Positions 52,515 through 53,189 of a stretch of 64,000 bases of DNA are shown piece by piece. Numbering within the stretch: the stretch's first letter is position 1; every line of letters starts with the position of its first letter. This DNA is from a virus: positions 49,285 through 113,284 of IMG/VR virus record IMGVR_UViG_3300031555_003080; one strand, written 5' to 3'. A program made the position numbers and the translations under genes. The notes under the pieces are model-generated. The model had not been told where the DNA came from and did not search any database. It worked only from the letters and a program-made list of their open reading frames with translations.

Positions 52515-53189
52515 TTACGACTTAGAGATAGCCGCCCCTAACTTTTTGAAAATATCTGCTGTTATCAGAGTAACATCTTTTACTGCTACTGGAACTTGAG
52601 CTTCTGTCGCTCCACAAGCAGTTCTTAAACTATTAAACCAAGCAGCGGTAATTAACTAACCGGCAGGAAAGGCAATGGTTACAGTACCATATTTACTGGC
52701 TTGATTTTTCCAACTTAAATATTTACCACAATGAGTATTCCAATTTGCTGCTGAAGTGCTAGTAATTACTGCATTGATAAGTTGGTCTTTGCTTCCATCA
52801 AACTCTGAAAAAACTCCTGGTCTAGTATATACTACTATTGAAGCGGTTTCAGTTTTTAAAGTATAATCACGAGTTCGTTGATGTTCCCAAGGAGTATATC
52901 CATCCTCAGTCTTTTCTCTTGTATAATAATATTCACTACAAGTAATAGTTAAAGTTGCTGAAATAGTTGTTGCTGCACCCTATGCTAAAGATGAAACTGT
53001 TTTAGTTCCAGAAGTTCCAGATGCAGATCCCCCAGGAGAAAATGACCAACTATAAACTGGGTTTCTGTAGCGATAACGAGAGAGTGTATATTCTTTATCC
53101 CAATCAGAAGGATCTACTGCATCGCAAGAATATGTTATTGTCGCTGATGTTAAACCTACAGAATCTGCGGTTCTTGATAATGTAGCCAT
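52515..53189 (-). CDS. hypothetical Ser/Thr-rich protein encoded with two in-frame TAG codons (amber readthrough/recoding candidate)
   Basis: ATG at 53189 with an AAAGGAGA SD. Frame runs 69 codons to TAG (52982-52980), 107 more sense codons with no ATG and no TAA/TGA to a second TAG (52658-52656), then 46 codons to TAA (52517-52515). Ends 9 nt from the tRNA(CUA) gene. Confidence 0.6.

Follow-up and report, generated by a model that had tools for sequence, protein, structure and literature searches.

A gene with two in-frame TAG codons, probably read as glutamine, next to a Gln-type tRNA(CUA) gene in the tRNA array of a large phage

The reading of TAG as glutamine with the help of phage-encoded suppressor tRNAs is already known, and the gene described here is a further example of it. 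It is located on the minus strand, at positions 52515 to 53189, of a stretch of 64,000 nucleotides (nt) of the IMG/VR virus record IMGVR_UViG_3300031555_003080 (positions 49,285 to 113,284 of the record), which is called the window in the following, and its frame contains two TAG codons. Judged from the sequence and its homologues, it very probably (we put the probability at roughly 0.85) constitutes one protein-coding gene of a large tRNA-rich phage using genetic code 15, in which both TAG codons are read as Gln by a Gln-type tRNA(CUA) encoded by the phage itself. Ribosomes would start at the ATG at 53189, meet UAG at codons 70 and 178 and insert Gln at both positions by means of this tRNA, whose gene lies 8 nt past the stop codon, and translation would end at a tandem TAA-TAA resulting in a protein of 224 amino acids (aa). 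Charging of the tRNA(CUA) with Gln would be performed by a host enzyme, i.e., by glutaminyl-tRNA synthetase (GlnRS) or by a non-discriminating glutamyl-tRNA synthetase (GluRS) together with an amidotransferase; the open reading frames (ORFs) of at least 300 aa in the 64 kb of the window include no synthetase and no release factor. The gene is made up of the following features:

52515..53189, minus strand: TAG-containing gene, 224 codons plus stop with TAG taken as Gln
53195..53202, minus strand: Shine-Dalgarno (SD) sequence AAAGGAGA, 6-nt spacer to the ATG, from the sequence
53189-53187, minus strand: start codon ATG, from the sequence
52980..52982, minus strand: TAG1, codon 70, preceded by 69 sense codons
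52656..52658, minus strand: TAG2, codon 178, 107 sense codons after TAG1
52512..52517, minus strand: tandem in-frame stop TAA TAA, the first TAA at 52517-52515, 46 sense codons after TAG2

This layout had been described in a sequence-only reading of the same DNA, and the SD sequence, the ATG, the TAG codons after 69 and 107 sense codons and the final 46 codons to TAA are indeed all present. The frame had moreover been described as invisible to standard ORF calling, and under code 11 just one ORF of 117 aa (52980..53333) is called, which overlaps the tRNA-Ser gene and ends at TAG1. Gene callers that are aware of code 15 recover the gene, and all database homologues are stored at full length with Q at the TAG positions. 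Past codon 1, ATG, GTG and TTG are absent from the frame, and the downstream segments therefore have no start of their own. That such a stop-free and Met-free continuation is unlikely by chance was borne out by two estimates: the chance of a run of 154 codons lacking TAA and TGA is about 4e-4 from the base composition, and it lies between 1e-3 and 5e-9 if the stop frequencies in the off-frames of the window's own genes are used. Homology settles the reality of the gene independently of these estimates.

Searching a space of 5.8 billion proteins with the product translated with TAG as Gln returned 21 homologues, which include full-length proteins of about 224 aa and do not end at the first TAG; 16 of them span at least 94% of the 224 residues. 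Their N-terminus, MATLS..., is the same as that of the window protein. All matches but one (20 of 21) are free of the chimeric architecture of the entry P0011, which is described below, and the query coverage of these 20 ranges from 46 to 100%. A profile search resulted in 217 family representatives at 50% clustering, none of which is named or carries a Pfam domain. The stored homologue proteins are not reproduced by translation with table 11, because the upstream gene caller used code 15.

Next to the proteins, the DNA of eight distinct homologous loci (numbered with an L in the following) was compared codon by codon. In seven of these eight loci one to three in-frame TAG codons are present, and no homologue contains an in-frame TAA or TGA or a frameshift, i.e., the frame is interrupted by TAG alone. 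Five columns of the alignment contain TAG in members of the close clade, and at each of these columns CAA or CAG is found in other loci. At the TAG1 column, L001, which encodes a 95% identical protein, has CAG, L002 and L003 have CAA and L005/L006 have TAG. At the TAG2 column, TAG is present in L001, L003/L004 and L012, CAG in L002 and CAA in L005/L006. Conversely, a CAA codon of the window gene (in the motif KDQLI) is a TAG in L003. Among the 20 residues aligned with TAG in the close clade, 12 are Gln compared to a background of 1.8%, which corresponds to a 33-fold enrichment; three are Ser, which at a background of 11% is no enrichment, and Tyr, Lys, Glu, Trp and Leu do not occur among them.

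The pattern of substitutions shows that selection extends over the whole frame. The ratio of nonsynonymous to synonymous substitution rates (dN/dS; Nei-Gojobori), determined for the window gene against five close relatives in three segments, stays below 1 in the part up to TAG1, in the part enclosed by the two TAGs and in the part following TAG2 (0.05-0.65 across the segments). Constraint is strongest in the last of these (dN/dS 0.05-0.45; compared to L002, dN 0.033 and dS 0.304), and in it the residues I180, T181, W184, N186, I209, L217, G218, I221 and S222 are invariant. Full-length homologues, the exchange of TAG with CAA and CAG and purifying selection in all three segments support the earlier proposal that a single gene runs across both TAGs. 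The TAG codons might instead be genuine stops, the locus being a decaying pseudogene or encoding a 69-aa peptide followed by a frame that is open by chance. Under the standard code the frame does halt at codon 70, and P0011 (JGI) was called as ending at TAG2. This explanation is nevertheless exceedingly improbable considering the purifying selection past both TAGs with the best conservation in the C-terminal tail, the lack of any in-frame TAA, TGA or frameshift in the homologues, the cognate suppressor encoded 8 nt away and the all but complete absence of TAG terminators from the window.

The entry P0011 has a length of 294 aa and matches residues ~86-177 of the window protein exactly up to its end at TAG2. 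Its N-terminal ~200 aa are unrelated and, judged by eye, possibly ATP-grasp-like. P0011 probably derives from a chimeric contig called under code 11 and shows how standard gene callers truncate the protein. Regarding its distribution, the homologous lineage was found only in metagenome assemblies of ENA, Logan and JGI. A tblastn search of the protein against 50,697 GenBank phage records gave zero matches, scans of IMG/VR and JGI metagenomes with the protein profile and of IMG/VR with a pattern for the long-arm tRNA found nothing, and window positions 51800-54000 have zero nucleotide matches in the GenBank phage collection beyond tRNA genes.

The structure of the protein was predicted by AlphaFold2 on an alignment of 20 sequences led by P0001, a protein with 95% identity to that of the window, resulting in a model with a pLDDT (predicted local distance difference test) of 90.9 and a pTM (predicted template modelling score) of 0.81. 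In this model, N-terminal residues ~1-121 form an FN3-like β-sandwich of seven strands with FN3 topology, and C-terminal residues ~138-224 form a helical domain. Confidence of this order is obtained only for the full-length two-domain protein, and TAG1 falls inside the predicted sandwich, which further argues against TAG codons acting as genuine stops; because of this position within the sandwich, the 69-aa truncation product would be non-functional. Foldseek searches against PDB and BFVD returned only partial matches of the FN3 type and one unnamed Myoviridae protein, with zero fold matches for the helical domain. Nothing significant was found in PHROGs and Pfam, where fn3 and Big families are unmatched and only CBM_20 (16.1 vs 23.3 bits) and CARDB (14.9 vs 22.7 bits) appear below threshold, and a profile search against PDB sequences gave a chance-level match only. 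The N-terminus does not resemble a signal peptide. The product had also been described as Ser/Thr-rich, which is correct (26% Ser+Thr), and as structural-protein-like, for which the backing is limited to the FN3-like fold predicted for the N-terminal half; matches to named virion proteins are zero. With low confidence, we guess that the protein might be an Ig/FN3-type accessory or adhesion protein.

The second component of the system is the suppressor tRNA. The earlier description of a tRNA(CUA) gene adjoining the gene is correct as to its presence, and the spacing after the stop codon has to be corrected from 9 to 8 nt.

52416..52506, minus strand: amber-suppressor tRNA, 91 nt, anticodon CUA at 52474-52472, encoded CCA; ARAGORN and Rfam
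52448..52461, minus strand: class II-like extra hairpin UCCCU-UUGA-AGGGG, core of a 16-17-nt insert in the variable region

The tRNA scores 52.5 bits with the Rfam tRNA model, with an insert in the variable region. In its acceptor stem U1 is opposite A72 and G2-G5 are paired with C68-C71, the discriminator is G73, and the D-arm, UCGUCUAAUGGUAGGA, is shared without change with the tRNA-Gln(CUG) of the window. The Tyr, Ser and Leu tRNAs of the window have G1 and long D-loops, with A73 in the Tyr and Leu tRNAs. The tRNA(CUA) is therefore assigned to the Gln type by its acceptor stem, discriminator and class I D-arm. It does not have the short variable loop (4-5 nt) of class I tRNAs. The insert was identified against the tRNA model and tRNA-Gln and is predicted to fold as a hairpin; the sequence of the arm hardly varies. 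The extra arm is kept in L002, L003, L005 and L012 as well as in the 88-nt tRNA-Sup-CTA of phage phAss-1, and it is absent from the 75-nt CUA tRNA of L009 and from the 72-nt CUA tRNA of phAss-1. The tRNA(CUA) would thus be predicted to act like a supE-type suppressor, yet it is a structural variant.

Three other origins or attributes of the tRNA(CUA) were considered and rejected. ARAGORN's label 'Pyl' reflects the anticodon only. tRNA-Pyl has a very short variable loop, a small D-loop and an elongated anticodon stem; the tRNA(CUA) has a standard D-arm, an anticodon stem of 5 bp and a long variable arm, and Lys is found at none of the 20 TAG-aligned residues. A supF-like origin from tRNA-Tyr, raised by an ambiguous identity ranking, does not agree with acceptor stem, discriminator and D-arm nor with the zero Tyr residues at the TAG columns. 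Finally, the 17 nt between the encoded CCA and the next ATG are too short for a theta ribozyme at the tRNA 3′ end, and an Rfam scan of the window at the gathering threshold identified only tRNAs and zero ribozyme families.

If TAG is a sense codon, it should be rare as terminator, and this is the case in the window. The minus strand has 73 ORFs with a length of 80 aa or more. TAA terminates 52 of them, TGA 19 and TAG two, and one of the latter two is the N-terminal fragment of the gene under study. With a typical TAG share of 10-20% assumed, the probability of finding at most one TAG stop among 72 genes is 5e-3 to 2e-6. The other TAG-ended ORF is a doubtful one of 92 aa (55172-55450, minus strand), which abuts tRNA-Gln(UUG); reading through its TAG would add 44 codons across the tRNA-Gln(UUG) gene, and it is either spurious or ends at a genuine TAG terminator. 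Another gene carries a TAG codon near its start:

35429..36166, minus strand: HNH homing-endonuclease-like gene with TAG as codon 10 (36139-36137); match to PHROG 374/559 HNH endonuclease from residue 1

Its TAG lies within the repeat NLMNqKFGRLLV (q, the TAG position), and the paired internal repeat NLTNQRFGNLIAL has Q encoded by CAA at this position. No start codon is present in the 30 codons past the TAG. From the family match and the repeat, the HNH endonuclease appears as a clear second gene of the window that requires TAG to be Gln. The clear TAG users in the window are thus the gene under study and the HNH endonuclease; the structural module lies outside the window. Three further candidates were dismissed: in the phosphoesterase (19869-20732) and in the polynucleotide kinase (20638-21288) the TAG precedes the part that matches the family, placing the true start downstream, and the orthologue of the GIY-YIG gene (3845-4792) is called with an ATG farther downstream as its start.

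Besides the tRNA(CUA), the window encodes a tRNA with the anticodon UCA (61296-61369, minus strand; 74 nt, Rfam score 61.7 bits, A73), which ARAGORN labels 'SeC'. Despite this tRNA, recoding of TGA was rejected, as TGA terminates 19-20 genes and zero credible in-frame TGA joins are found. There is no tRNA-Trp(CCA) in the window. Candidate roles of the tRNA(UCA) are that of an opal suppressor and that of a Trp-type tRNA for both UGA and UGG.

The gene is embedded in a tRNA array (48.8-63.9 kb) that comprises 37 tRNA genes. These tRNA genes and all credible ORFs are encoded by the minus strand. The surroundings of the gene contain the following features:

53218..53310, minus strand: tRNA-Ser(UGA), CCA end 28 nt upstream of the ATG of the gene
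53337..53687, minus strand: upstream neighbour, ORF of 116 aa, zero in-frame TAG, no PHROG match
52060..52398, minus strand: downstream neighbour, basic Cys-containing ORF of 112 aa, start within 17 nt of the tRNA(CUA), own SD and ATG
53833..53861, minus strand: predicted sigma-70-type promoter TTGACA-17-TGnTATAAT, 12/12 consensus match plus TG extension, upstream of tRNA-Thr
47175, 48822, 50130, 51678, 51876, 53861, 55678, 56593 and 62111 (first-hexamer coordinates), minus strand: copies of an extended -10 motif

The 112-aa ORF has zero Pfam or PHROG matches. No terminator-like site is present on the minus strand between the promoter match and the gene. By its sequence features, the order tRNA-Thr / 116-aa ORF / tRNA-Ser / gene / tRNA(CUA) / 112-aa ORF is a probable unit transcribed from the predicted promoter. 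L002-L006 and L012 have the same order, including tRNA-Ser / gene / tRNA(CUA). Individually, the tRNA-Ser(UGA) neighbour is also present in L001-L005, L007, L008 and L012, the 116-aa upstream gene is called in L003-L005 and L007-L012, and a gene of 110-116 aa is located downstream in L002-L012. The adjacency of the suppressor is conserved in the close clade only. The extended -10 motif itself (TTGAyw-17-TGnTATAAT) recurs on the coding strand of the array, and two of its copies are perfect.

According to the mechanism that we propose, transcription from the sigma-70-type promoter at 53861 would yield a joint transcript of the gene and the tRNA(CUA), and RNase P would cleave the two apart. As long as the host release factor 1 (RF1) is not outcompeted by the suppressor, only a useless 69-aa fragment would be made, and the yield of full-length protein would depend on the suppressor level as in the published model of recoded phages. 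The suggestion of the sequence-only reading that expression is gated by suppressor availability is, by analogy to this model, plausible, and the gene-specific enrichment of TAG fits it: the gene contains 2 TAG and 4 CAA codons (2 of 6 Gln-type codons), whereas the remaining 60 long ORFs together contain 1 TAG and 468 CAA/CAG codons (about 1/469; Fisher p = 4e-4).

Several points weigh against the reading as a code-15 gene decoded with Gln and gated by its suppressor. The first group concerns the inserted residue. The homologous sequences are related, meaning that binomial p-values for the TAG columns overstate independence; the Gln enrichment, as read from the alignment, is unambiguous despite this kinship. 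At column 20, L002 has TAG and five other loci have Ser, which leaves room for some Ser insertion at TAG. Moreover, the class II-like arm and G73 of the tRNA(CUA) resemble identity elements of seryl-tRNA synthetase (SerRS). Bacterial SerRS recognises its tRNAs chiefly by G73 and the long variable arm, with no role for the anticodon, and an extra arm of 16-17 nt is atypical for a tRNA-Gln. It is therefore conceivable that SerRS, or another synthetase, charges the tRNA(CUA) partly or wholly and that TAG signifies Ser or another residue. Checked against the codon data, the Ser reading is unsupported: at TAG-aligned positions Ser stays at background and Tyr is absent, in contrast to the 33-fold enriched Gln, and the TAG of the HNH endonuclease is aligned with a CAA codon for Gln in the paralogous repeat. 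A short class I D-arm as in tRNA-Gln, together with U1-A72, sets the tRNA itself apart from the Ser, Leu and Tyr tRNAs with their long D-loops, and relatives decode the gene family with CUA tRNAs of 72-75 nt that lack the extra arm. We regard such charging by SerRS or another synthetase as improbable and retain Gln as the residue probably inserted.

The second group concerns density and regulation. Sense TAG occurs in just two, perhaps three, of about 75 genes in the 64 kb, and the endolysin (13742-15241) contains no TAG, so the usual pattern of recoded late and lysis genes does not emerge from these 64 kb, which leave out the structural module. Gating is weakened by the fact that mRNA and suppressor apparently share a promoter: because gene and tRNA appear to belong to one transcription unit, any delay would have to come from accumulation of the tRNA and not from separate timing. 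Furthermore, L009/L010 keep three TAGs with the CUA tRNA 1.3 kb upstream and not adjacent, and in L007/L008 the gene has neither a TAG nor an adjacent suppressor. TAG might be no more than a rare synonymous Gln codon lacking a regulatory role, with the suppressor made from the start, TAGs drifting in and out by C-to-T transitions at CAG and the adjacency an accident of the position in the array. In favor of such neutral synonymy, the TAG positions are fluid between close relatives and none is fixed family-wide, the promoter shared by gene and tRNA is apparently of the host-type consensus, and adjacency and TAGs are uncoupled in L007-L010 as just described. Against it stands the concentration of TAG in this one gene of the window. 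In addition, one to three TAGs are found in seven of eight distinct loci and zero in the 116-aa and 112-aa neighbours in orthologue comparisons; TAG in the gene and not in its neighbours points to a gene-specific tolerance or selection. A preferential recoding of particular gene families is moreover reported for other code-15 and code-4 phages (Borges et al., bioRxiv 10.1101/2021.08.26.457843). Neutral synonymy is a serious possibility, though one to which we give less than even odds.

The relatives also carry TAGs in other genes. In L007 (2642-3142) and L008 (1087-1587) a neighbouring gene for a C39-like peptidase has four in-frame TAGs, and L009 (10422-10982) and L010 (5060-5620) contain an ORF of 186 aa with two. 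As other genes carry TAGs where the homologue has none (L007/L008), the set of recoded genes differs between relatives.

Two further tRNA genes of the array are related to the tRNA(CUA) in structure. The tRNA-Ile(UAU) (58675-58769, minus strand; 95 nt) has a class II-like hairpin, GCAC-CAGAUUA-GUGC, in its variable region, and the array hence holds two class I-type 'unconventional decoder' tRNAs with an extra arm, CUA and UAU. A weak tRNA-like gene (54587-54660, minus strand; 34.6 bits) has an aberrant anticodon arm and is unassigned by ARAGORN; its D-arm resembles those of tRNA-Gln(CUG) and the CUA tRNA, and it may be a degenerate Gln-type paralogue. Since the arm is common to the window tRNA and phAss-1 despite a swapped acceptor stem, and since a similar arm is present on tRNA-Ile(UAU), it can be speculated that the extra arm is a functional device of a mobile phage lineage of 'unconventional decoder' tRNAs. 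It might alter the recognition by synthetases or modification enzymes or shield the tRNA from anticodon nucleases of host or defence systems. Separately, the conserved cassette of tRNA-Ser, TAG-containing FN3 gene and tRNA(CUA) could form a co-transcribed self-gated unit, in which the protein would appear only after the unit's own suppressor has become active. We consider these proposals unlikely, at the level of a long shot.

The remainder of the window encodes proteins of nucleotide metabolism (NAD-dependent ligase, two topoisomerase II subunits, ThyA, DHFR, NAMPT and PhoH) and of RNA repair type (RNA ligase, polynucleotide kinase and a Thg1-like enzyme), next to the endolysin. A set of tRNA/RNA repair-type genes adjoins the tRNA array on the minus strand (20638-21288, 26588-27445, 34047-35456, 39668-40498 and 45507-47072), its members being the polynucleotide kinase, a Thg1-like tRNA-His guanylyltransferase, the RNA ligase, a protein with a sub-threshold match to an RlaP-like nucleotidyltransferase and a phrog_850 'RNA-binding protein'. 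A protein of 813 aa (30761-33202, minus strand) has major vault protein 'shoulder' (2.7e-21) and vault repeat domains and no PHROG match, which is unusual for a phage. An SPFH/Band 7 flotillin-like protein of 497 aa (18165-19658, minus strand) likewise has no PHROG match, and a protein of 542 aa (43685-45313, minus strand) carries N-terminal S-layer homology (SLH) repeats, a hint that the host may be an S-layer-bearing member of the Bacillota (Firmicutes-type). Finally, positions 19691-24843 (minus strand) contain a run of ORFs in different frames overlapping by 20-200 nt, e.g., 19691-20065 with 19869-20759, and 22435-22776, 22736-23197, 23179-24066 and 23996-24556. Read-through of TAG or TGA does not explain these overlaps, and they could be real overlapping genes, frameshifts or assembly errors.

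As a summary, the gene represents a well-supported case of TAG read as Gln at the level of individual codons in an uncharacterised lineage of large tRNA-rich gut phages. Table 15 has to be used for annotation, as otherwise this gene and the HNH endonuclease are truncated. The recoding is sparse, i.e., TAG has been given up as a stop and is used as a sense codon in few genes, which fits the proposed route from stop-codon depletion via suppressor acquisition to a gradual in-frame spread (Borges et al., bioRxiv 10.1101/2021.08.26.457843). The extra arm on a Gln-type suppressor tRNA across unrelated code-15 phages poses a small and testable question of tRNA identity.

Among known systems, E. coli supE is an amber suppressor of a comparable type. 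This tRNA-Gln with the anticodon CUA competes with RF1 for UAG, where it inserts Gln, and it arose by point mutation of a cellular class I tRNA with a variable loop of 5 nt. The tRNA(CUA) of the window shares with it the Gln-type body with U1-A72, G2-C71, G3-C70 and G73 and the anticodon CUA, and differs by the class II-like arm of 16-17 nt and by being a dedicated phage gene. At the genome level, phages using code 15 with a tRNA-Sup(CUA) comprise crAss-like, Lak, Garnet, Agate and related lineages, for which a model was published in which early genes use the standard code, late genes are recoded and the suppressor gates expression (Borges et al., bioRxiv 10.1101/2021.08.26.457843); for two crAss-like phages only, code 15 is reported to have been validated by proteomics (PMC9523058). 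As in these phages, the window has in-frame TAGs in conserved genes aligned with Gln in homologues, a phage CUA tRNA with an apparent reliance on the host synthetase, TAG depleted as terminator and a recoding that is uneven between gene families, a homing endonuclease included. Unlike in other code-15 phages, TAG is sparse in the 64 kb, the endolysin is free of recoding, the recoded gene is situated among the tRNA genes of the array instead of in a structural or lysis module, and the long ORFs include neither release factor nor synthetase.

A closely similar suppressor is found in phAss-1 of the proposed Phassvirus, which belongs to the 'Caudoviricetes code 15 clade', a gut phage with 36 tRNAs that reads TAG as Gln and has no dedicated synthetase (OQ749652; PMC10607447). 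In D-arm, anticodon arm, extra hairpin and T-arm, its 88-nt tRNA-Sup-CTA agrees with the window tRNA (93% identity over 88 nt), while the acceptor stems differ by fully compensated changes (AGCGGGU/ACCCGCU in phAss-1 against UGGGGAC/GUCCCCA in the window). phAss-1 has no homologue of the window protein and, tRNA genes excepted, no nucleotide similarity to window positions 51800-54000; its Sup tRNAs adjoin ribonucleotide reductase genes and not a homologue of the window gene, and TAG is present in 41 of 147 ORFs, which is far denser than in the window (PMC10607447). Suppressor tRNAs associated with theta ribozymes, which are similar to that of hepatitis delta virus (HDV), are known from recoded gut phages, where maturation is thought to set the suppressor level (PMC10879173). 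The window likewise has the suppressor tRNA of a recoded gut Caudoviricetes phage in a tRNA cluster, and it differs by the encoded CCA of the tRNA(CUA) and the lack of room for a ribozyme. On the side of the protein, the likeness to Ig-like/FN3 accessory domains of phages consists in the predicted FN3-type sandwich of the N-terminal ~120 residues; unlike these domains, the window protein is free-standing with 224 aa, has an additional helical domain and is encoded away from any recognisable structural module.

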